Shown here piece by piece: positions 1 to 42,987 of a DNA stretch of 58,765 nt. Position 1 is the first letter of the stretch. The number at the start of each line of letters is the position of its first letter. This stretch comes from a phage. The stretch is from the sequence record PX530564.1. The stretch is one strand, 5' to 3'. A program made the position numbers and the translations under genes. The notes under the pieces were generated by a model. That model worked only from the letters and a program-made list of their open reading frames with translations. It searched no databases and was not told where the DNA came from.

Positions 1-78
1 CAAGTAGCACTCGTAGTAGTCGGTGCTTGTTGCCTAGCGGCAGCCTGTGCTTGCGTGTGGTGCTTCGTCAATTGTTAA
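1..78 (+). CDS. 3' end of a small Cys-rich hydrophobic protein, partial (runs off window start); possibly the gene 1.4 equivalent
   Basis: Open frame from position 1 (..ALVVVGACCLAAACACVWCFVNC) ending TAA 76-78 at the phi1.5 promoter; no start codon inside window. Confidence 0.3.
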   Translation, partial: QVALVVVGACCLAAACACVWCFVNC

Positions 79-98
79 TACGACTCACTAAAGGAGGT
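76..98 (+). promoter_or_regulatory. T7 RNAP class II promoter (phi1.5-like)
   Basis: TAATACGACTCACTAAAGGAGGT, one mismatch to T7 consensus; directly upstream of gene 1.5. Confidence 0.85.
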
Positions 99-202: not shown

Positions 203-225
203 TAATACGACTCACTAAAGGAGAC
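203..225 (+). promoter_or_regulatory. T7 RNAP promoter (phi1.6-like)
   Basis: TAATACGACTCACTAAAGGAGAC upstream of gene 1.6. Confidence 0.85.
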
Positions 226-230
226 ACTAT

Positions 231-491
231 ATGTTTCGACTTCATTACAACAAAAGCCTTAAGGGTTTCTCAGTTCGCCGTGCTGACCGTTCAATCGTAT
301 GTGCGAGCGAGCGCCGAGCTAAGCTACCTCTTATTGGTGACACAGTTCCTTTGGCACCGAGCGTCCACATCATTATCACTCGTGGTGACTTTGAGAAAGC
401 AATAGACAAGAAACGTCCGGTTCTTAGTGTGGCAGTGACCCGCTTCCCGTTCGTCCGTCTGTTACTCAAACGCATCAAGGAGGTGTTCTAA
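231..491 (+). CDS. 1.6: gene 1.6 protein (86 aa)
   Basis: ORF track 231..491; position and sequence as T7 gp1.6; second copy at 36408. Confidence 0.85.
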
Positions 492-1132
492 TGGGTTGCA
501 TAGCTTGCTTAGAGAAAGACGACCGTTATCCACACACTTGCAACAAAGGAGCTAACAATATGACCGAACGTGAACAAGAGATTATCATTCAGTTGATAGA
601 TAATAACGAGGGTCGTAGCGGGGACACATCTGGTTGCGGACTGTTCTGCGCTGGAGTACCTTGCGGCGAGTGTCCTGTGACAAACGATGGGCACATTACT
701 CTAGGTGAAATCCGAGCGATGGACCCGCGTAAACCTCACCTGAATAAACTTGAGGTAACTCCTACAGATGACCAGCCTTCAACCGAGGAACACAGCGATG
801 GAATGGTGTGTAACTGCGAGCGTGACTACGATACAAGTGATGGACACGCACTAGACTGTTCAATCCGCGGTGTCAACTCCCAAGCCAATGTGGTCGATGG
901 TGTCACTAATCCGTCCCATTACATGCTGTTCGACGACATTGAGGCTATCGAAGTGATTGCCCGTTCAATGACTCGTGAGCAGTTTAAAGGGTACTGCTTT
1001 GGGAACATCCTTAAGTATCGCCTACGGGCTGGTAAGAAGTCCGAACTGGCTTACTTAGAGAAGGACATGGCGAAAGCGGGGTTCTATGGTGAACTGTATG
1101 AGAAACATAAGGACAAGTGCTATGACTCTTAA
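491..1132 (+). CDS. 1.7: gene 1.7 nucleotide kinase-like protein (213 aa)
   Basis: ORF track; start overlaps 1.6 stop; Cys-rich N-terminal region and conserved C-terminus (..NPSHYMLFDDIEAIEVIARSMT..). Confidence 0.85.
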   Translation: MGCIACLEKDDRYPHTCNKGANNMTEREQEIIIQLIDNNEGRSGDTSGCGLFCAGVPCGECPVTNDGHITLGEIRAMDPRKPHLNKLEVTPTDDQPSTEEHSDGMVCNCERDYDTSDGHALDCSIRGVNSQANVVDGVTNPSHYMLFDDIEAIEVIARSMTREQFKGYCFGNILKYRLRAGKKSELAYLEKDMAKAGFYGELYEKHKDKCYDS

Positions 1133-1212
1133 CGATATTCTGTACTTAGGGTTAATTTTCGCTGGAGCAGGCGCGTTACTTCGCTTAATGTATTGGGCCA
1201 TAGAGGTGGAAT

Positions 1213-1525
<313 letters not shown>

Positions 1526-1528
<3 letters not shown>

Positions 1529-28645: not shown

Positions 28646-28763
28646 GTACCACAAGCAGTAAGGGTGTAGGGATAGGAACCGAGAAACCTGCCCGCGACCC
28701 GCCACGGATAAGGCACTAGCTATGAGTCGAATTCGGTCACTCATCGCATAAAAGAATAACAGG

Positions 28764-28792
28764 TTGACAGCCTCCTTTAAAAGCTGTAAGAT
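28764..28792 (+). promoter_or_regulatory. additional sigma70-like promoter inside a 137-bp block shared with 40531..40667
   Basis: TTGACAGCCTCCTTTAAAAGCTGTAAGATGTACC (-35 TTGACA, -10 TAAGAT). Confidence 0.45.
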
Positions 28793-29070
28793 GTACCACA
28801 GAAAGACACCGAGTGTCGTAGGTGTAAAAACGCGACATAGTGGATAGATGCCGAAAGCACAAGCGACCACGATAATAAAGAGCTTGTCGGAAATGTAACG
28901 CAAGTGACGGCTAACACTGAAACAGCCTCGGCTCGACGAAACTGTAGCTTAAAGTTCTTTAACAATTTGGTAAATAGCTCTTGGGTGCACGAATAGCGGA
29001 TAACTCAAGGGTATCGCAAGGTGCCCTTTATGATATCCACTAACATTCACATACAATGAGGTAACACAAG

Positions 29071-29421
29071 ATGGCTATGTCTAACATGACTTATAACAAC
29101 GTTTTCGACCACGCTTACGAAATGCTGAAAGAAAACATCCGTTATGATGACATCCGTGACACTGATGACCTGCACGATGCAGTACACATGGCAGCCGATA
29201 GCGCCGTTCCGCACTATTACAGCGACATTTTCAGCGTAATGGCAAGCGAGGGCATTGACCTTGAGTTCGAAGACTCTGGTCTGATGCCGGACACCAAGGA
29301 CGTAATCCGTATCCTGCAAGCACGTATCTATGAGCAACTCACAATCGACCTTTGGGAAGACGCTGAGGACTTACTGAACGAGTATCTTGAGGAAGTCGAA
29401 GCAGAAGAGGATGAAGAGTAA
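29071..29421 (+). CDS. ocr: gene 0.3 Ocr, DNA-mimic anti-restriction protein (116 aa)
   Basis: ORF track; [36 protein letters not shown].. with acidic C-terminus. Confidence 0.93.
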
Positions 29422-29576
29422 TGGCCAACAACACCACGCAATATGGTCTGACCGCTCAAACTGTACTGTTTTATAGTGACATGGTGCGCTGTGGATTTGA
29501 TTGGTCGCTCGCAATGGAACACCTTAAGGAACTGTATGAAAACAACAAGGCAATAGCCTTGGAGTCTGCTGAGTGA
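29421..29576 (+). CDS. 0.4: gene 0.4 protein (51 aa)
   Basis: ATG 29421 overlapping ocr stop, TGA 29574-29576. Confidence 0.65.
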   Translation: MANNTTQYGLTAQTVLFYSDMVRCGFDWSLAMEHLKELYENNKAIALESAE

Positions 29577-29625
29577 TAAACTCAAGGTCGCTCCTAGCGA
29601 GTGGCCTTTCATGATTATCACTTTA
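29577..29625 (+). promoter_or_regulatory. RNase III processing hairpin (R0.5-like)
   Basis: AACTCAAGGTCGCTCCTAGCGAGTGGCCTTTCATGATTATCAC. Confidence 0.4.
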
Positions 29626-29643
29626 CTTACGGGAGTAATGTAT

Positions 29644-29769
29644 ATGCTTACTATCGGTCTACTCACCGCTCTGGGTCTAGCTGTAGGCGCATCCTTTGGG
29701 AAGTCTTTGGGCGTAGCTGTAGGCTCTTACTTGGTCGCTTGTATCATCACGGGAGCACTGCGCAAATGA
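29644..29769 (+). CDS. 0.5: gene 0.5 small membrane protein (41 aa)
   Basis: ATG 29644, MLTIGLLTALGLAVGASFGKSLGVAVGSYLVACIITGALRK. Confidence 0.6.
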   Translation: MLTIGLLTALGLAVGASFGKSLGVAVGSYLVACIITGALRK

Positions 29770-29906
29770 TGAAACATTACGTTATGCCTATCCACACCAA
29801 GAACGGTGCTACAGTTTGCACACCTGATGGCTTCGCAATGAAACAACGCATTGAGCGCCTTAAGCGCGAACTGCGCATCAACCGCAAGCGTCTTCAACTA
29901 GGCTGA
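29766..29906 (+). CDS. 0.6: gene 0.6-like protein (46 aa)
   Basis: ATG 29766 overlapping 0.5 stop; MMKHYVMPIHTKNGATVCTPDGFAMKQRIERLKRELRINRKRLQLG. Confidence 0.55.
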   Translation: MMKHYVMPIHTKNGATVCTPDGFAMKQRIERLKRELRINRKRLQLG

Positions 29907-29931
29907 AATTCTTGTAACTAAAGGCAACTGT

Positions 29932-30386
29932 ATGCTTAATTGCTCCAAAACGTGTATAGCATGTGGTGAGATGAAACCACTGAATATGTACTCGAAAAAT
30001 GCAGCATCGCGAGATGGTCACATCGGTACGTGTAAGAAATGCAAGGCAAAGCAACAAAGGGAACGAAGAGCCAAGGCAAAGGCTTCTGGTGCGCCAACTG
30101 AGAAGGCAATCAAGGATGCCAAGCGTAGACGAAACAATCACCTGAAAATTAGTTACGGTATCGACGAATCAGTGTACAAAAAGATGTACGAAGAACAACA
30201 CGGCGTCTGCGCCATATGTAAACAACCTGAAAGCATTGAGGGTAGGCGACTATGTGTTGACCATTCGCACATGACAGGAGACGTAAGGGTCTTCTGTGCT
30301 CAAACTGCAACAGAGGAATAGGCCTTCTTAAAGACTCACCTGAACTATTACGCAACGCTTTCTATTATTTAACTGGTAAACTCTAA
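29932..30386 (+). pseudogene. Endonuclease VII-type (His-Cys box) homing-endonuclease-like gene with apparent 1-nt frameshift
   Basis: ORF 29932..30321 carries CAICKQP..LCVDHSHMTGDVR; the motif continues in the +1 frame (GLLCSNCNRGIGLLKDSPELLRNAFYYL) to TAA 30384-30386; break is in the G-run at 30287-30289. Confidence 0.7.
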
Positions 30387-30399
30387 AGGACACACTGTA

Positions 30400-31479
30400 A
30401 TGAACATTACCGACATCATGAACGCTATCGACGCAATCAAAGCACTGCCAATCTGTGAACTTGATAAGCGTCAAAGTATGCTCATTGATTTGCTGGTCGA
30501 GATGGTCAACAACGAAACGTGTGACGGTGAAATCACCAAGCTGGACAAGCCGCTTGAATATCAGGACTGGTGGACTACCTTAAGGTGCCTGACTACTGAC
30601 GCTGGCTTCACGATGCTCGGTAATGGTCACTTCTCCGCTGCATATAGTCACCCACTGCTGCCTAACAGAGTGATTAAGGTGGGCTTTAAGAAAGAGGATT
30701 CAGGCGCTGCGTATATCGCATTCTGCCGCATGTATCAGGGTCGCGCTGGTATCCCTAACGTCTACGATGTTCAACGCCATGCAGGCTGCTATACGGTGGT
30801 TCTTGATGCCCTGAATGAATGTGAGCGAGACGATAACTATGAGCACGACAAATACGCTGAGATTGCAAGCGACATCATTGACTGCAACTCTGATATGCAC
30901 GATTGGCGTGGCGGATGGGTTGGGGAGTTCGTCGAAACTTGCAAACTAATCCGCAAGTTCTTTGAGGGCATCGCTTCGTTCGACATGCACAGCGGGAACA
31001 TCATGTTCGACGATAATGACGTACCGTACATTACCGACCCTGTGTCATTCTCACAGAAGAAAGATGGTGGCGTGTTCAGCATGGACCCTGAGGAACTCAT
31101 CAAGGAAGTCGAGGAAGTCGCACGACAGAAAGAAATTGACCGCGCCAAGGAACGTAAAGAACGCCATGAGGGACGATTACAAGCGCGTAGAGTCAAACGC
31201 ATTAATCGCAAGGCACGTAAGGCACACCGCGCTAAGCGTGAAAGGATGCTTGCTGCGTGGCGCATGGCTGAGCGTCACGAACGGCGTAACCATGAGGTAG
31301 CTGTAGATGTGCTAGGAAGAACCAATAACGCTATGCTCTGGGCGCACATGTTCGCTGGGGACTTTAAGGCGCTTGAGGAACGAATCGCAGCGCACTGGTT
31401 CCAAGCTGACCGCATGGCTATAGCTAATGGTCTTCCACTAAACATTGATAAGAAACTTGACGCAATGCTAATGGGATGA
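30400..31479 (+). CDS. 0.7: gene 0.7 protein kinase / host transcription shut-off protein (359 aa)
   Basis: ORF track; [25 protein letters not shown].. full length as T7 gp0.7. Confidence 0.9.
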
Positions 31480-31549: not shown

Positions 31550-34201
31550 ATGAGCACGATTAACATCGCTAAGAACGATTTCTCTGACATCGAACTGGCT
31601 GCTATCCCGTTCAACACTCTGGCTGACCACTATGGTGAGCGTCTAGCTCGCGAACAGTTGGCCCTTGAGCATGAGTCTTACGAGATGGGCGAGGCACGTT
31701 TCCGCAAGATGTTTGAGCGTCAACTCAAGGCCGGTGAGGTTGCAGACAATGCGGCTGCTAAGCCACTGATTACTACTCTACTGCCCAAGATGGTTACACG
31801 CATCAACGACTGGTTTGAGGAAGTGAAAGCTAAGCGTGGCAAACGTCCAACCGCTTTCCAGTTCCTGCAAGGAATCAAGCCGGAAGCCGTAGCGTATATC
31901 ACCATTAAGACTACTCTTGCTTGCCTAACGAGCGTAGACAATACAACCGTTCAGGCTGTAGCAAGCGCCATCGGACGGGCTATCGAGGAAGAGGCTCGCT
32001 TCGGTCGAATCCGTGACCTAGAAGCTAAGCACTTCAAGAAAAACGTTGAGGAACAACTAAACAAGCGCGTAGGGCACGTCTATAAGAAAGCATTCATGCA
32101 AGTAGTAGAGGCCGATATGCTCTCTAAGGGTCTACTCGGTGGCGAGGCGTGGTCTACATGGCACAAGGAAGATTCCATTCACGTAGGTGTGCGCTGCATT
32201 GAGATGCTCATTGAGTCCACCGGAATGGTTAGCTTGCACCGCCAAAATGCTGGCGTAGTGGGCCAAGACTCTGAGACTATCGAGCTGGCACACGAATACG
32301 CTGAGGCTATCGCAACACGGGCTGGGGCACTGGCGGGTATCTCTCCGATGTATCAGCCTTGCATAGTACCGCCTAAACCTTGGACCGGTGTAACTGGTGG
32401 TGGATACTGGGCCAACGGTCGCCGTCCACTGGTACTGGTGCGTACCCACAGCAAGAAGGCACTGATGCGCTACGAAGATGTTTACATGCCTGAGGTATAC
32501 AAGGCGATCAACATTGCGCAAAACACCGCTTGGAAAATCAACAAGAAAGTCCTAGCGGTCGCCAACGTAATCACCAAGTGGAAGCACTGCCCGGTCGAGG
32601 ACATCCCAGCGATTGAACGTGAAGAACTCCCGATGAAACCGGAAGACATCGACACGAATCCTGAGGCTCTCACTGCATGGAAACGTGCCGCTGCCGCTGT
32701 GTACCGTAAAGACAAGGCTCGCAAGTCTCGCCGCATAAGCCTTGAGTTCATGCTTGAGCAAGCCAATAAGTTCGCTAACCATAAGGCCATCTGGTTCCCT
32801 TACAACATGGACTGGCGCGGTCGTGTTTACGCTGTGTCAATGTTCAACCCGCAAGGTAACGACATGACCAAGGGACTGCTGACACTGGCTAAGGGTAAAC
32901 CAATCGGTAAAGAAGGTTACTACTGGCTGAAAATCCACGGTGCAAACTGTGCGGGTGTCGATAAGGTTCCGTTCCCTGAGCGCATCAAGTTCATTGAGGA
33001 CAACCACGAGAACATCATGGCTTGCGCTAAGTCTCCTCTGGAGAACACTTGGTGGGCTGAGCAAGATTCTCCGTTCTGCTTCCTTGCGTTCTGCTTTGAG
33101 TACGCTGGGGTACAACACCACGGCCTTAGCTACAACTGCTCTCTTCCGCTGGCGTTCGATGGGTCTTGCTCTGGTATTCAGCACTTCTCCGCGATGCTCC
33201 TTGATGAGATAGGTGGTCGTGCGGTTAACCTGCTGCCTAGTGAAACCGTTCAGGACATCTACGGGATTGTCGCTAAGAAAGTCAACGTGATTCTGCAAGA
33301 AGACGTAATCAACGGGACCGACAACGAAGTAGTTACCGTGACTGATGAGAACACTGGCGAAATCTCTGAGAAAGTTAAGCTGGGCACCAAGGCATTGGCT
33401 GGTCAGTGGTTGGCTTACGGTGTTACTCGCAGCGTGACTAAGCGTTCAGTCATGACGCTGGCTTACGGGTCCAAAGAGTTCGGCTTCCGTCAACAAGTGC
33501 TGGAAGATACCATTCAGCCAGCTATTGATTCCGGTAAAGGTCTGATGTTCACTCAACCGAATCAGGCCGCTGGATACATGGCGAAACTGATTTGGGAAGC
33601 TGTGAGCGTCACGGTGGTAGCTGCGGTTGAAGCAATGAACTGGCTTAAGTCTGCCGCTAAGCTGCTGGCTGCTGAGGTCAAAGATAAGAAGACTGGAGAG
33701 ATTCTTCGCAAGCGTTGCGCTGTGCATTGGGTAACTCCTGATGGGTTCCCAGTGTGGCAGGAATACAAGAAGCCAATTCAGACTCGCTTGAACCTGATGT
33801 TCCTCGGTCAGTTCCGCTTACAGCCGACCATTAACACCAACAAAGACAGCGAGATTGATGCACACAAACAGGAGTCCGGTATTGCTCCTAACTTTGTACA
33901 CAGCCAAGATGGTAGCCACCTGCGTAAGACTGTAGTGTGGGCGCATGAGAAGTACGGAATCGAATCATTTGCGTTGATTCACGACTCCTTCGGGACCATT
34001 CCGGCTGACGCTGCCAACCTGTTCAAAGCTGTTCGCGAAACTATGGTTGACACCTATGAGTCTTGCGATGTACTGGCTGACTTCTATGAGCAGTTCGCTG
34101 ACCAGTTACATGAGTCTCAATTGGATAAAATGCCAGCACTTCCGGCTAAAGGTAACTTGAATCTCCAAGACATCCTTAAGTCAGACTTCGCGTTCGCGTA
34201 A
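31550..34201 (+). CDS. 1: gene 1 single-subunit DNA-dependent RNA polymerase (883 aa)
   Basis: ORF track; near-identical to T7 RNAP (MSTINIAKNDFSDIELAAIPFNTLADHYGERLAREQ.. ..DFAFA). Confidence 0.98.
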   Translation: MSTINIAKNDFSDIELAAIPFNTLADHYGERLAREQLALEHESYEMGEARFRKMFERQLKAGEVADNAAAKPLITTLLPKMVTRINDWFEEVKAKRGKRPTAFQFLQGIKPEAVAYITIKTTLACLTSVDNTTVQAVASAIGRAIEEEARFGRIRDLEAKHFKKNVEEQLNKRVGHVYKKAFMQVVEADMLSKGLLGGEAWSTWHKEDSIHVGVRCIEMLIESTGMVSLHRQNAGVVGQDSETIELAHEYAEAIATRAGALAGISPMYQPCIVPPKPWTGVTGGGYWANGRRPLVLVRTHSKKALMRYEDVYMPEVYKAINIAQNTAWKINKKVLAVANVITKWKHCPVEDIPAIEREELPMKPEDIDTNPEALTAWKRAAAAVYRKDKARKSRRISLEFMLEQANKFANHKAIWFPYNMDWRGRVYAVSMFNPQGNDMTKGLLTLAKGKPIGKEGYYWLKIHGANCAGVDKVPFPERIKFIEDNHENIMACAKSPLENTWWAEQDSPFCFLAFCFEYAGVQHHGLSYNCSLPLAFDGSCSGIQHFSAMLLDEIGGRAVNLLPSETVQDIYGIVAKKVNVILQEDVINGTDNEVVTVTDENTGEISEKVKLGTKALAGQWLAYGVTRSVTKRSVMTLAYGSKEFGFRQQVLEDTIQPAIDSGKGLMFTQPNQAAGYMAKLIWEAVSVTVVAAVEAMNWLKSAAKLLAAEVKDKKTGEILRKRCAVHWVTPDGFPVWQEYKKPIQTRLNLMFLGQFRLQPTINTNKDSEIDAHKQESGIAPNFVHSQDGSHLRKTVVWAHEKYGIESFALIHDSFGTIPADAANLFKAVRETMVDTYESCDVLADFYEQFADQLHESQLDKMPALPAKGNLNLQDILKSDFAFA

Positions 34202-34852: not shown

Positions 34853-35878
34853 ATGATGAACATTAAGACCAACCCATTCAAAGCCGTGTCTTTCATAGAG
34901 TCTGCCATTAAGAAAGCTCTGGATAACGCTGGGTATCTTATTGCTGACATTAAGTACGATGGTGTGCGTGGTAACATCTGCGTAGACAATACCGCTAACT
35001 GCTGCTGGCTCTCTCGTGTATCCAAACCGATTCCGGCACTGTCTTACCTTAATGGGTTCGACGCACGTTGGCAGCGTCTACTAAAGGATGACCGTTGCTT
35101 CTACCCTGATGGCTTCATGCTGGATTGCGAACTTATGGTCAAGGGAGTGGACTTCAACACTGGCTCCGGCCTTCTGCGGACCAAGTGGCTCAACAAGAAG
35201 AACATGCAGTTCGATATTGGAGGTCCGTATGAATCGTGGGACGTGAGCCTGAAGGGACTTCCTTTCGGTATTGACCCGAACTTACTAACAGTTAAACTCT
35301 ACGCTATCCTTCCGTACCACATTGTGGAATCTGGGGAAGACTGTGATGTCATGACGTTGCTCATGCAGGAACACGTTAAGAACATGCTGCCTCTGCTACA
35401 GGAATACTTTCCTGAAATCGAATGGCAAGCGGCTGAGTCTTACGAGGTTTACGACATGGTAGAACTACAGCAACTGTACGAGAAGAAGCGTGAAGAAGGG
35501 CATGAGGGTCTCATTGTGAAAGACCCGATGTGCATCTACAAGCGCGGTAAGAAGTCCGGCTGGTGGAAACTTAAGCCTCTTGAGGAAGCTGACGGTATCA
35601 TTCAAGGTGTAAACTGGGGAACCGAAGGGCTTGCTAACGAAGGTAAGGTAATTGGATTCAAGGTGCTTCTTGAGACTGGTCGTCTTGTGGATGCCAATAA
35701 CATCTCTCGCGCCTTAATGGATGAATTTACAGCTAACGTTAAAGAACATGGCGAGGACTATTATAATGGCTGGGCTTGCCAGATTGGATTTATGGAGGAA
35801 ACACCAGATGGCTCATTGCGTCACCCGTCCTTCACCTGCTTCCGAGGAACTGAGGACAATCCGAAAGAGAAAGTATAA
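34853..35878 (+). CDS. 1.3: gene 1.3 ATP-dependent DNA ligase (341 aa)
   Basis: ORF track; adenylation-site motif ..IADIKYDGVRG.. and C-terminus ..ETPDGSLRHPSFTCFRGTEDNPKEKV. Confidence 0.92.
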   Translation: MMNIKTNPFKAVSFIESAIKKALDNAGYLIADIKYDGVRGNICVDNTANCCWLSRVSKPIPALSYLNGFDARWQRLLKDDRCFYPDGFMLDCELMVKGVDFNTGSGLLRTKWLNKKNMQFDIGGPYESWDVSLKGLPFGIDPNLLTVKLYAILPYHIVESGEDCDVMTLLMQEHVKNMLPLLQEYFPEIEWQAAESYEVYDMVELQQLYEKKREEGHEGLIVKDPMCIYKRGKKSGWWKLKPLEEADGIIQGVNWGTEGLANEGKVIGFKVLLETGRLVDANNISRALMDEFTANVKEHGEDYYNGWACQIGFMEETPDGSLRHPSFTCFRGTEDNPKEKV

Positions 35879-36278
35879 GTATAACCCTGCGGCTCCTTCG
35901 GGAGTCATTTCTGCCTCTGGTAAACCCATAGGGTACAAGCGGAAAGATGGGTATTGGGTTCTTTCTTATGGAGGAAAGCAGTTACTTGCACACAGGGTGG
36001 TCTGGATGCTTAACTTCGGTGCAATACCCGATGGAATGGTGATAGACCACATTAACAGAAACCCTAGCGACAACCGCATAGAGAATCTTCGAGTAGTAAC
36101 TCAATCAGCTAACCTAAGGAATGTAGGCGTCCGGTCTCACTGTAGGAGTGGAGAGAAGTTTATCTCCCTTGATGTGAGAACCGGACGTTTTTCCGTTCGT
36201 ATCAGGAGAAAATCCTATGGAACATATGGTACTCTCGAAGAGGCTATAGCTGTGCGCGATGCTAATACGACTCACTAA
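35808..36278 (+). CDS. HNH homing-endonuclease-like protein (about 156 aa) between ligase and gene 1.5
   Basis: ATG 35808 with GGAGGA RBS, inside ORF 35721..36278; motif ..GMVIDHINRNPSDNRIENLRVVTQSAN..; overlaps ligase 3' end by 71 nt; stop is the TAA of the phi1.5 promoter. Confidence 0.7.
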   Translation: MAHCVTRPSPASEELRTIRKRKYKYNPAAPSGVISASGKPIGYKRKDGYWVLSYGGKQLLAHRVVWMLNFGAIPDGMVIDHINRNPSDNRIENLRVVTQSANLRNVGVRSHCRSGEKFISLDVRTGRFSVRIRRKSYGTYGTLEEAIAVRDANTTH

Positions 36279-36292: not shown

Positions 36293-36382
36293 ATGATGTA
36301 CTTAATGCCATTACTCATTGTCATCATAGGATGCCTTGCGCTCCACTGTAGCGATGACGATATGCCAGATGGTCATGCTTAA
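36293..36382 (+). CDS. 1.5: gene 1.5 small membrane protein (29 aa), block B copy
   Basis: ATG 36293, MMYLMPLLIVIIGCLALHCSDDDMPDGHA, TAA 36380-36382. Confidence 0.65.
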   Translation: MMYLMPLLIVIIGCLALHCSDDDMPDGHA

Positions 36383-36407: not shown

Positions 36408-36668
36408 ATGTTTCGACTTCATTACAACAAAAGCATTAAGAATTTCACGGTTCGCCGTGCTGACCGTTCAATCGTATGTGCGAGCGAGCGCCGAGCTAAG
36501 TTACCTCTTATTGGTAACACAGTTCCTTTGGCACCGAGCGTCCACATCATTATCACCCGTGGTGACTTTGAGAAAGCAGTAGATAAGAAACGTCCGGTTC
36601 TTAGCGTGGCAGTGACCCGCTTCCCGTTCGTCCGTCTGTTACTCAAACGTATCAAGGAGGTGTTCTAA
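36408..36668 (+). CDS. 1.6: gene 1.6 protein (86 aa), block B copy
   Basis: ORF track; 5 aa differences from the copy at 231..491. Confidence 0.85.
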
Positions 36669-36995
36669 TGACTATTAACCATAAAGAATATTGTCGCTCC
36701 GTACTTAGCTTTGGGTCGTGCGATTGTGGTGCCACTACGAACCACGTGTCCAACAAACAACAAGACGTAGACGGTGTTCGTACTCCGAGCCATTACATGC
36801 TGTTTGACGACATTGAGGCTATTGAAGTGATTGCCCGTTCGATGACCAGTGAGCAGTTCAAAGGGTACTGCTTCGGGAACGTACTTAAATATCGCCTACG
36901 TGCTGGTAAGAAATCCGAACTGGCTTACTTAGAGAAGGACATGGCGAAAGCTGAGTTCTACGGTGAACTGTACGAGAAACATAAGGATAAGTGCT

Positions 36996-37009
<14 letters not shown>
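36668..37009 (+). CDS. 1.7: gene 1.7 protein, short allele (113 aa)
   Basis: ORF track; conserved C-terminal half, N-terminal Cys-rich region largely absent relative to the 213-aa block A allele. Confidence 0.8.
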
Positions 37010-37329
<320 letters not shown>

Positions 37330-39064: not shown

Positions 39065-40537
<1,473 letters not shown>

Positions 40538-40631
40538 GGATAGGAACCGAGAAACCTGCCCGCGACCCGCCAAGGATAAGGCACTAGCTATGAGTCGAAT
40601 TCGGTCACTCATCGCATAAAAGAATAACAGG

Positions 40632-40660
40632 TTGACAGCCTCCTTTAAAAGCTGTAAGAT
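40632..40660 (+). promoter_or_regulatory. sigma70-like promoter inside the shared 137-bp block (block C copy)
   Basis: TTGACAGCCTCCTTTAAAAGCTGTAAGATGTACC; block 40531..40667 near-identical to 28663..28799. Confidence 0.45.
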
Positions 40661-40847
40661 GTACCACGAAATGACGGAACAGTGAGTCACCACACTGAAA
40701 GGTGATGCGGCCTAACGAAACCTGACCAAAGACGCTCTTTAACAATCTGGTAAACGGCTCTTGAGTGTACACACGTAGCGGATAACTCAAGGGTATCGCA
40801 AGGTGCCCTTTATGATATCCACTAACAACACTATGAGGTAACACACA

Positions 40848-41198
40848 ATGGCTATGTCTAACATGACTTATAACAACGTTTTCGATCACGCTTACGAAAT
40901 GCTGAAAGAAAACATCCGTTATGATGACATCCGTGACACTGATGACCTGCACGATGTAGTACACATGGCAGCCGATAGCGCCGTTCCGCACTATTACAGC
41001 GACATTTTCAGCGTAATGGCAAGCGAGGGCATTGACCTTGAGTTCGAAGACTCTGGTCTGATGCCGGACACCAAGGACGTAATCCGTATCCTGCAAGCGC
41101 GTATCTATGAGCAACTCACGATTGACCTCTGGGAAGACGCTGAGGACTTACTGAACGAGTACCTTGAGGAAGTCGAAGCAGAAGAGGACGAAGAGTAA
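40848..41198 (+). CDS. ocr: gene 0.3 Ocr anti-restriction protein (116 aa), second copy
   Basis: ORF track; one aa difference from the copy at 29071. Confidence 0.93.
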
Positions 41199-41353
41199 TG
41201 ACTAACAACACCACGCAATACGGTCTGACCGCTCAAACTGTACTGTTCTATAGCGACATGGTGCGCTGTGGCTTTAACTGGTCGCTCGCAATGGAACACC
41301 TTAAGGAACTGTACGAAAACAACAAGGCAATAGCCTTGGAGTCTGCCGAGTGA
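41198..41353 (+). CDS. 0.4: gene 0.4 protein (51 aa), second copy
   Basis: ATG 41198, TGA 41351-41353. Confidence 0.65.
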   Translation: MTNNTTQYGLTAQTVLFYSDMVRCGFNWSLAMEHLKELYENNKAIALESAE

Positions 41354-41421
41354 TAGGCTCAAGGTCGCTCGATATGAGTGGCCTTTATGATTATCACTTT
41401 ACTTGAATGGGAGTAATGCAC

Positions 41422-41550
41422 ATGCTTACTATCGGTCTACTCACCGCTCTAGGTCTAGCTGTAGGCGCATCCTTTGGGAAGTCCTTAGGCGTAGCTGTAG
41501 GCGCTTACTTGGTCGCTTGTATCATTACGGGAGCACTGCGCAAATGCTGA
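41422..41550 (+). CDS. 0.5: gene 0.5 small membrane protein, second copy
   Basis: ATG 41422, MLTIGLLTALGLAVGASFGKSLGVAVGAYLVACIITGALRKC. Confidence 0.6.
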   Translation: MLTIGLLTALGLAVGASFGKSLGVAVGAYLVACIITGALRKC

Positions 41551-41706
41551 AACACTACGTTATGCCTATCCACACATCCAACGGGTCTACAGTATGCACA
41601 CCTGATGGGTTCGCAATGAAACAACGAATCGAACGCCTTAAGCGTGAACTGCGCATCAACCGCAAGATTAACAAGATAGGTTCCAGCTATGACAGAACTC
41701 ACTGAT
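41545..41706 (+). CDS. 0.6: gene 0.6A (53 aa); the overlapping frame 41689..41907 may give a 0.6B-type extension
   Basis: ATG 41545, MLKHYVMPIHTSNGSTVCTPDGFAMKQRIERLKRELRINRKINKIGSSYDRTH; overlapping ORF 41689..41907 in ORF track. Confidence 0.6.
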
Positions 41707-41928
41707 GGCTTAAAGAAAGGTTACATGACCAACGGTACACTATACGCTGCAAATAGGCGAATAGTGAGAACTTGGCGAGAGAACAACCTTGAACGCCGTA
41801 AGGCCCAAGAAAGGGCGGCATGGCATCGGCGAAAGGAAAAGGTTAAAGCCAAGAAACTCGCCGCACTTGAAAAGGCACTAGCCAATACACTGAACGCTAT
41901 CTCATAACGAACTAAAGGACACACTGAA

Positions 41929-42987
<1,059 letters not shown>

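Follow-up and report, generated by a model that had tools for sequence, protein, structure and literature searches.

Is the short gap between genes 1.7 and 1.8 of a T7-like phage simply spacer, or does it encode a small membrane peptide? The question is raised by sequence record PX530564.1, a stretch of DNA of 58,765 nt (referred to throughout as the window) from T7-like (Studiervirinae) phages, which carries two T7-like gene blocks, A and B. An initial annotation had noticed, in a spacer of about 80 bp in block A, a possible 35-codon hydrophobic open reading frame (ORF) opening at ATG 1122, and had allowed for both answers. When the sequence was re-read, this mini-ORF was found to run on the plus strand from ATG 1122-1124 to TGA 1227-1229 and to encode 35 amino acids (aa), as had been described; the spacer measures exactly 80 nt (1133-1212), from the TAA of gene 1.7 (1130-1132) to the ATG of gene 1.8 (1213). 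Block B indeed has no mini-ORF, and there gene 1.7 (36668-37009) overlaps gene 1.8 (36996-37136). Of the two answers, it is the peptide that is supported here: the frame, its ATG and the hydrophobicity of its product are kept in relatives, its codons carry the signature of purifying selection, and its product matches the protein family phrog_29660. In our judgement, the mini-ORF is probably a genuine but dispensable T7-like gene that is under selection, encodes one hydrophobic helix of 28-35 aa, travels as an optional 88-nt cassette and would act in the membrane.

The reading frame and its conservation

Taken alone, the mini-ORF is not beyond chance, because such ORFs are common: by our own arithmetic a run of 35 stop-free codons has a probability of ~0.19 in random sequence, and 233 ORFs of 28-60 aa that begin with ATG are present in the window over six frames. 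Its significance comes instead from conservation in relatives. A tblastn search with the peptide against 50,697 phage records matched 67 of them, always at a position adjoining gene 1.7, and blastn was concordant. The matching records are T7-like phages of Escherichia, Salmonella, Yersinia, Citrobacter, Serratia and Shigella. For comparison we gathered 21 loci with a homologue, representing 18 distinct nucleotide sequences and three genera, i.e., Teseptimavirus (13a, EG1, C5 and an IMG/VR genome whose gp1.7 is 99% identical to that of block A), Berlinvirus (JSS1, PYps49T, BP12A, CarlSpitteler, CECAV_058, P151, 285P, D226 and PhiV-1) and Kayfunavirus or Kayfunavirus-like phages (K1F, SH3, PRF-SP2, KM02, 22664UKE3-2, Pipis and BUCT788, the records of the last two giving no genus). 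Conservation of the frame in relatives, a check that the initial annotation had named, was complete: all 21 loci keep the frame intact from the same ATG, with 28-35 codons, and neither a frameshift nor an internal stop occurs in any of them (0/21). Synteny was likewise found at 21/21 loci, the frame starting on the stop of whichever gene precedes it (gp1.75 in K1F, otherwise 1.7) and ending at or in the start of 1.8. A 47-aa product from ATG 1086, proposed by an automatic ORF call, was rejected since the upstream in-frame starts are not conserved and only ATG 1122 is.

Tests of selection were limited to codons 5-27 (23 codons), which are free of overlap with gene 1.7 and with the Shine-Dalgarno (SD) sequence and start of gene 1.8. 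For the first, second and third codon positions, respectively, variable columns numbered 11, 11 and 21 of 23 and minimum substitutions 15, 13 and 33, so that variability affected 21/23 third positions as compared with 22/46 first and second positions together (Fisher p=0.0005). The pooled Nei-Gojobori pN/pS in the mini-ORF frame was 0.21, with a Jukes-Cantor dN/dS of 0.12. In the same alignment, the other two forward frames gave pN/pS values of 0.99 and 1.37, with 62 stops in one of these frames, while two of the minus-strand frames contained 54 and 13 stops and the third a single stop (19 sequences). As the same sequences were used, these other frames constitute an internal control. The invariant residues are D5, G15, G17, L22 and W25; elsewhere the replacements are of a kind that is conservative in a membrane helix (I/V, L/V, F/L/Y, G/V/L/C, A/V/M, R/F/L) and remain hydrophobic, e.g., R21 to F or L and G10 to V, L or C. 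As judged from these alignments, the codons vary in the way expected where purifying selection acts on an encoded protein, and we regard it as very probable that the mini-ORF is a real translated gene.

Profile searches with hmmscan placed the peptide in phrog_29660, a family of unknown function (E=4.7e-23, 81.8 bits; residues 1-34 against profile positions 1-34 of 35), of which it is a conserved accessory member. The mini-ORF is annotated as a coding sequence in 13a, JSS1, SH3, PYps49T, CarlSpitteler and CECAV_058, where it is labelled "unknown product; ORF" in 13a (AS5_0012, ACF15895.1 / YP_002003945.1) and "hypothetical protein" in the other five. The family is therefore already catalogued, though functionally blank, and the mini-ORF is an ordinary accessory gene of low novelty. 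It is omitted from the annotations of P151, BUCT788, PRF-SP2, PhiV-1, D226, 285P, Pipis, 22664UKE3-2 and KM02; four of these (PRF-SP2, D226, KM02 and Pipis) annotate neither the mini-ORF nor gp1.8, and both frames are intact in them.

The exact peptide of the window was not present in a collection of 15 billion proteins; the nearest one, from IMG/VR UViG_3300045988_000100, differs at 2 residues. A pattern scan of IMG/VR returned 8 genomes, all of which had been matched by the earlier searches. Neither a host nor a plasmid origin was indicated, with no match by blastn against 5,426 E. coli genomes or by tblastn against plasmids, and the peptide sequence was absent from the supplements of a phage accessory-gene screen. 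A HMMER search against 1.84 billion representatives gave 0 matches at E<=0.001, a result that is uninformative given that a 35-aa query yields too few bits and that clusters of tiny proteins are mixed. Clusters at 90% identity that contain the mini-peptide also hold gp1.8 variants (MTLKPSEWC...) and a 630-aa transporter-like protein; this looks like an artefact of clustering very short sequences and not like homology, and the same artefact may account for the null result among the 50% representatives.

The initial annotation had seen no obvious ribosome-binding site, which proved to be wrong. The SD-like sequence TAAGGA (1108..1113, plus strand), a 6-nt match to the anti-SD, lies within the 1.7 coding sequence and 8 nt upstream of ATG 1122, and AAGGA or AAAGG occupies this position in all relatives in which 1.7 precedes the ORF; in K1F, in which gp1.75 precedes it, the position reads GGTGA. 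In addition, ATG 1122 is embedded in ATGACTCTTAA and overlaps the stop of gene 1.7. A start codon that overlaps the preceding stop is the usual arrangement for translational coupling, and stop/start overlaps of the ATGCTTAA type are found again in the relatives, including after gp1.75 in K1F. Gene 1.8 has an SD of its own, GAGGTGG (1203..1209, plus strand), placed within mini-ORF codons 28-30, with a spacing to the ATG of 3 nt (5 nt if counted from GAGGT); it is invariant in the alignment with the exception of GAGGTGT in the Pipis/KM02 type.

Two phage promoters lie upstream on the plus strand. The phi1.5-type phage RNA-polymerase promoter TAATACGACTCACTAAAGGAGGT (76..98) was read from the sequence, corresponds to the homologous site annotated as phi1.5 in 13a, and has 4 mismatches to the T7 consensus, hence its absence from a promoter scan that allowed 3; it is a likely source of the mini-ORF transcript. 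The phi1.6-type promoter TAATACGACTCACTAAAGGAGAC (203..225), annotated as phi1.6 in 13a, stands upstream of 1.6, 1.7, the mini-ORF, 1.8 and 2. A crude pattern scan of 800-1700 detected no sigma-70-like promoter on either strand and no intrinsic terminator, and a consensus scan detected no phage promoter in 1100-1240.

The predicted helix and the 88-nt cassette

The one transmembrane segment that had been predicted from the sequence was recovered by two approaches, and insertion itself remains a prediction. AlphaFold2 modelled a single helix over residues 3-30 (mean pLDDT 93.3), and the best Kyte-Doolittle means of the window peptide lie above the classical threshold of 1.6, at 1.94 for 17 residues (6-22), 1.77 for 19 residues (6-24) and 1.64 for 21 residues (6-26). 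On this basis, the predicted transmembrane helix was assigned to codons 6-27, ILYLGLIFAGAGALLRLMYWAI (1137..1202, plus strand). Across alleles the Kyte-Doolittle values range from 1.8 to 2.6, with 19-residue means of 2.4-2.6 in the 285P and Pipis alleles. The tails are short: 4-5 residues precede the helix and 1-8 follow it, the C-terminal tail reading EVEYGKAE (net charge -2) in the window and EVEYGKTK in relatives. Since this C-tail is absent in the Pipis/KM02 type and elsewhere coincides with the start of gene 1.8, the helix would be the functional core. Charges amount to -1 in the N-tail and -2 to 0 in the C-tail, with R21 near the C-side, and give no firm positive-inside topology; the net charge is 0 to -2, and the N-terminus is not basic in the manner of a signal peptide. 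The structural model and the hydrophobicity profile thus suggest that the product is a membrane helix, which we hold to be likely.

Comparison of occupied and empty junctions defined a presence/absence cassette of 88 nt (1133..1220, plus strand), with boundaries that are ambiguous by 2 nt owing to the flanking AA. It comprises the body of the mini-ORF together with a new SD and ATG, GAGGTGGAATATG, for gene 1.8, and separates the end of 1.7 from the conserved KPSEWC core of gp1.8. By junction alignment it is a clean indel with identical boundaries, and each of the three genera includes phages with it and phages without it. Empty sites read ...TGCTATGAC(G/T)CTTAA followed directly by (A/G)CC...GA(A/C)TGGTGC, and in these the ATG overlapping the 1.7 stop is the start of gp1.8, giving MTLKPSEWC..., MILKPSEWC... 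or MLKPSEWC.... In occupied sites, 88 nt are added between CTTAA and GCC; an insert of this length shifts the frame, 88 not being divisible by three, with the result that the old ATG becomes the start of the peptide, and the SD and ATG at the 3' end of the cassette restore gp1.8 as MEKPSEWC.... The same type of pair is formed by K1F (occupied) and a K1F-like IMG/VR genome (empty, MLKPSEWC), in this case 3' of the extra gene 1.75. Phages also fill the slot in other ways: block B and one IMG/VR genome with MM(H/R)GETVYY, T7 with a 20-aa hydrophilic N-terminal extension of gp1.8, and another IMG/VR genome with an unrelated 57-aa ORF. Two ideas on the origin of the cassette were rejected. Homology to the T7 and block B fillers by overprinting, in two frames, gave local alignments no better than shuffles, and the terminal 6-nt match ATATTC/GAATAT that might have marked a miniature mobile element is not kept in relatives (ATGTTC, ACATTC).

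Sequences like gp1.8 were found in 966 phage records as against 67 with the peptide, and the cassette is accordingly optional. Its alleles also have a history different from that of the adjoining gene. JSS1 (Berlinvirus) and SH3 (Kayfunavirus) share an identical peptide while the C-termini of their 1.7 products stand at pN 0.22, whereas JSS1 and 285P, both Berlinvirus, differ by pN 0.01 in 1.7 and by 0.20 in the peptide; moreover, one identical 34-aa peptide has been recorded from Citrobacter, Yersinia and Salmonella phages. We infer from these sequences that cassette alleles have been swapped independently of 1.7, probably by homologous recombination through the conserved flanks. The junction after 1.7 is an insertion hot spot more generally. 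K1F-type phages carry there an extra gene 1.75 of 75-87 aa, and extra ORFs after 1.7 were observed at 932-1159 (K1F gp1.75), 1715-1978 and 1820-1993, in the coordinates of their own loci. Each of these hot-spot ORFs begins on the stop of the preceding gene (ATG...TGA or ATG...TAA), producing a chain of coupled small genes.

Alternative readings and a proposed role

Five other readings of the locus were weighed. The one that survives best, although it is unlikely, accepts the peptide and makes it a factor (holin-like, antiholin-like or type I-toxin-like) that damages the inner membrane, by depolarizing or permeabilizing it, or that times lysis, and not one that binds a specific partner. In approximate size and in its hydrophobic single-helix build it resembles type I toxins and small pore-formers; a helix is predicted, and invariant glycines lie in its middle. 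However, the gene is part of a middle operon of DNA metabolism and not of the late lysis cluster, so that synthesis would precede lysis by minutes; a cationic C-terminal tail is lacking, the net charge being 0 to -2; no similarity to holin or toxin families was found in Pfam, NCBIfam or PADLOC; and the scan of 800-1700 detected no antisense promoter.

A second possibility, which we consider quite improbable, is that only the act of translating across the gap matters, either for delivery of ribosomes from 1.7 to 1.8 or for unfolding of the mRNA, and that the peptide is a by-product. The overlaps with the 1.7 stop and the 1.8 start do have the anatomy of a coupling relay, and phages with empty sites couple 1.8 directly to 1.7. 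Yet a relay would require an open frame and nothing else, while here the residues are under purifying selection and hydrophobicity is preserved. Gene 1.8, having its own strong SD GAGGTGG, needs no relay; the Pipis/KM02 alleles stop before the 1.8 ATG, and the empty junction achieves coupling with 88 fewer bases.

The two readings that deny a function to the frame fare worse. That of a chance ORF in a non-functional spacer is very improbable and, from the sequence comparisons, close to refuted: the ease with which frames of this length arise and the omission of the mini-ORF from many GenBank annotations are set against a frame that is intact with a conserved ATG at every locus, an excess of third-position changes, a low pN/pS in this frame only, a PHROG family match, and the direct overlap of 1.7 and 1.8 in phages that need no spacer. 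It is equally improbable that the conserved block is a cis-acting element (a structured RNA, an RNase III site, a promoter or a recombination site) in which the ORF is incidental. The 3' third, GAGGTGGAATATGG..., is nearly invariant in nucleotides, as would suit such an element, but this invariance is explained by the SD and start of 1.8 that lie there, and the remainder varies at 21/23 third positions. Furthermore, the RNA fold of 1100-1240 was no better than that of shuffled sequences (z=+1.0; 167/200 shuffles at least as good), no Rfam match was obtained at E<=1, and the scans described above gave no promoter- or terminator-like site in 800-1700 and no phage-promoter consensus in 1100-1240. 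Least probable of all is a membrane-anchored gp1.8 fusion whose N-terminal part is the mini-ORF product, for which ribosomes would have to shift by +1 within the 17-nt overlap. In its favour, 1.8 lies in the +1 frame relative to the ORF, the overlap contains an AAA-G at which tRNA-Lys could re-pair and empty-site phages start gp1.8 at the same ATG. Against it, neither a hungry nor a stop codon is present at the putative shift site, 1.8 is provided with an SD and an ATG of its own, and the ORF/1.8 overlap is not conserved because the stop of the ORF varies in position and type (TGA, TAG one codon earlier, or TAA before the 1.8 ATG).

We return, then, to a selected accessory gene for a single membrane helix, for which the following scheme may be proposed. 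Starting at promoters phi1.5 and phi1.6, the phage RNA polymerase would transcribe the gene along with the middle (class II) genes. In a phage bearing the cassette, the ATG on the 1.7 stop starts the peptide, whose translation would rely on the TAAGGA SD and/or coupling to 1.7 termination, and the cassette supplies the fresh SD and ATG for gp1.8. The helix would insert in the host inner membrane as a single-pass micro-protein, and helix-helix contact, perhaps through the invariant G15 and G17, would be its most likely mode of action. The target might be a host membrane protein or a membrane component of a competitor phage, and the benefit a conditional one, gained in taking over the host, in counter-defence or in exclusion; a role at the core of the phage cycle is not likely. 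Any specific role that might be named for the peptide, being drawn by analogy, is tentative at best.

Several observations weigh against this interpretation. The alleles are phylogenetically related and offer only ~16 synonymous sites per pair, so that any single pairwise ratio is subject to noise. At the two ends of the frame (the first 4 codons and the last 8), overlap with 1.7, the 1.8 SD and the 1.8 start makes conservation uninformative on the peptide. With respect to the membrane, AlphaFold2 was run on a single sequence without an alignment, and a confident helix is no proof of membrane insertion. The window allele is only moderately hydrophobic, with three Gly, five Ala and one Arg in the segment, and an unweighted Hessa-scale sum of +1 to +2 kcal/mol makes it marginal; the corresponding sum for the 285P type is -3, which is clearly favourable. 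Searches with the peptide sequence gave no match in Pfam, NCBIfam or the Protein Data Bank, 0 families at E<=10 for three alleles in PADLOC-DB (anti-phage defence and counter-defence), and no mention of the peptide in papers by full-text literature search. T7 and block B are among the many phages without the mini-ORF, and any function must for that reason be conditional. Finally, translation, membrane location and phenotype are all predicted, and partner binding, takeover and exclusion are suggested by analogy.

Within these bounds, a more speculative and rather doubtful extension can be considered, in which the 88-nt cassette is a minimal "plug-in" gene that passes by recombination, at one hot-spot junction, between T7-like phages of three genera, taking over the gp1.8 start codon and bringing in a replacement for it, and in which the transmembrane micro-protein is a determinant of host range or competition. 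The peptide might, for example, block an abortive-infection effector bound to the membrane, or the channel through which a superinfecting phage ejects its DNA, and if this were true, the fast, mosaic turnover of alleles would reflect an arms race. As a gene prediction the mini-ORF adds little, having been in GenBank since the deposit of 13a and having its own PHROG family. What it does offer is a 35-codon frame that many annotation pipelines drop and that is a selected gene, which is why annotations of this junction should carry it. It is also a clean example of how a gene can be added in 88 nt with the neighbours undisturbed, through a reused coupled start and a new downstream SD and ATG, and the natural occupied and empty junctions in three genera represent ready-made isogenic designs for probing a one-helix phage membrane protein.

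Genomic surroundings and comparison with known systems

Genes 1.7, 1.8 and 2, which adjoin the mini-ORF, are on the plus strand, and the left end of the window carries its genes in the order given here. Gene 1.5 (104-196) encodes a hydrophobic mini-protein of phrog_12128, and gene 1.6 (231-491) is taken from the ORF list. Gene 1.7 (491..1132; 213 aa) is of the nucleotide kinase family (phrog_2585 "nucleotide kinase", E=1.7e-79; Pfam DUF3310), and shares its last 11 nt with the beginning of the mini-ORF. Gene 1.8 (1213..1332; 39 aa; phrog_1312, E=9e-21) overlaps the 3' end of the mini-ORF with its first 17 nt, in a different frame. The next gene of the same operon is gene 2 (1334..1528; 64 aa), a host RNA-polymerase inhibitor according to the annotation of its homologue in relatives, followed by a phi2.5-type promoter (1526-1548) that matched the phage-promoter consensus scan, and then by gene 2.5. 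In block B, gene 1.8 (36996..37136, plus strand; 46 aa) has as its start codon the counterpart of ATG 1122 and overlaps the 3' end of 1.7. The 1.7 products of the two blocks differ in length, with 213 aa in block A (491-1132) as against 113 aa in block B (36668-37009); that of T7 has 196 aa. The Cys-rich N-terminal half is variable or absent, and the C-terminal DUF3310 part is ~89% identical in DNA between the two blocks.

The window is not a collinear T7-like genome (27528-31479, 39080-42981, 48721-54164). Block A extends over genes 1.5 to 17 and passes directly into a left-end/early region, genes 17.5-19.5 being absent; this early region includes an ocr-like 0.3 (29071-29421), the 0.7 kinase (30400-31479) and gene 1 (31550-34201). 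The early region at 28663-31228 is repeated at 40531-42757 (87-99% identity), inside gene 4 of block B, and in block B the gene 6 region (48721) is followed at once by the gene 15/16 region, with genes 7-14 missing. This arrangement has the appearance of a chimera joined from two or more related strains, or else of a genome that has been rearranged or engineered. Two ORFs, judged from their translations, are probably mobile endonuclease insertions: a 185-aa HNH/AP2-like ORF of homing-endonuclease type in block B (35721-36278), which overlaps the end of the ligase gene 1.3, and a 129-aa Cys-rich HNH-like ORF (29932-30321) in the early region between 0.6 and 0.7.

The closest counterparts of the mini-ORF product are the other members of phrog_29660 (13a ACF15895.1, SH3 gp15 AMR59517.1, JSS1_012 and PYps49T ORF042), which have the same 1.7/1.8 locus, an ATG overlapping the 1.7 stop and a length of 33-35 aa. 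Identity to the window peptide is 76-86% for 13a and most alleles and 61-73% for the 285P, PhiV-1 and Pipis types. The window allele, which carries F13, A16, L9 and E35, is the one absent from the protein collection; no member of the family has an assigned function. The slot and the equivalent start ATG are shared with the cassette by the T7 gp1.8 extension (MHNFKSTPPADSLSDDFTSC-SEWC...) and by the short fillers found in block B and at empty sites. These sequences, however, are hydrophilic and read within gp1.8, whereas the peptide made from the cassette is a separate one, in another frame, and gene 1.8 is started anew.

Type I toxins (Ldr, TisB, Hok, Ibs/Sho) and holins (T7 gp17.5) are small hydrophobic helical peptides of the inner membrane. 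Holins and pinholins differ from the mini-ORF product in belonging to a late lysis cassette, next to endolysin and spanin genes, and in having a highly charged, usually basic C-terminal tail in the cytoplasm; the mini-ORF lies between the nucleotide kinase gene 1.7 and 1.8/2, and its product has no such tail. Type I toxins are accompanied by an antisense RNA gene that overlaps or adjoins them and has its own promoter, for which neither a sigma-70-like promoter (800-1700, crude scan) nor an Rfam antitoxin RNA was found here. A further parallel is the T7-group gp1.5 (104-196 and 36293-36382; phrog_12128), likewise a hydrophobic mini-protein of ~30 aa and of unknown function in the same middle-gene operon. 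The gene 1.5 product, MMYLMPLLIVIVGCLALH..., reaches a Kyte-Doolittle mean of up to 2.5. It differs in having no sequence similarity, in its N-terminal hydrophobic stretch followed by an acidic tail, and in its presence in both blocks of the window and in the annotations of 13a, 285P and PhiV-1, the mini-ORF being optional.

In bacteria, small single-pass membrane proteins such as AcrZ, MgtS, MgrB and CydX modulate larger proteins of the membrane. No sequence relationship to this class was detected, and the likeness in mechanism is one of analogy only. In build, the members of this class and the mini-ORF product are alike, with ~30-50 aa, one transmembrane helix, very short tails and plausible packing of the helix within the membrane, and the hydrophobic alpha-helical segment of ~19-23 residues that characterizes a single-pass protein has its predicted counterpart in residues 6-27.

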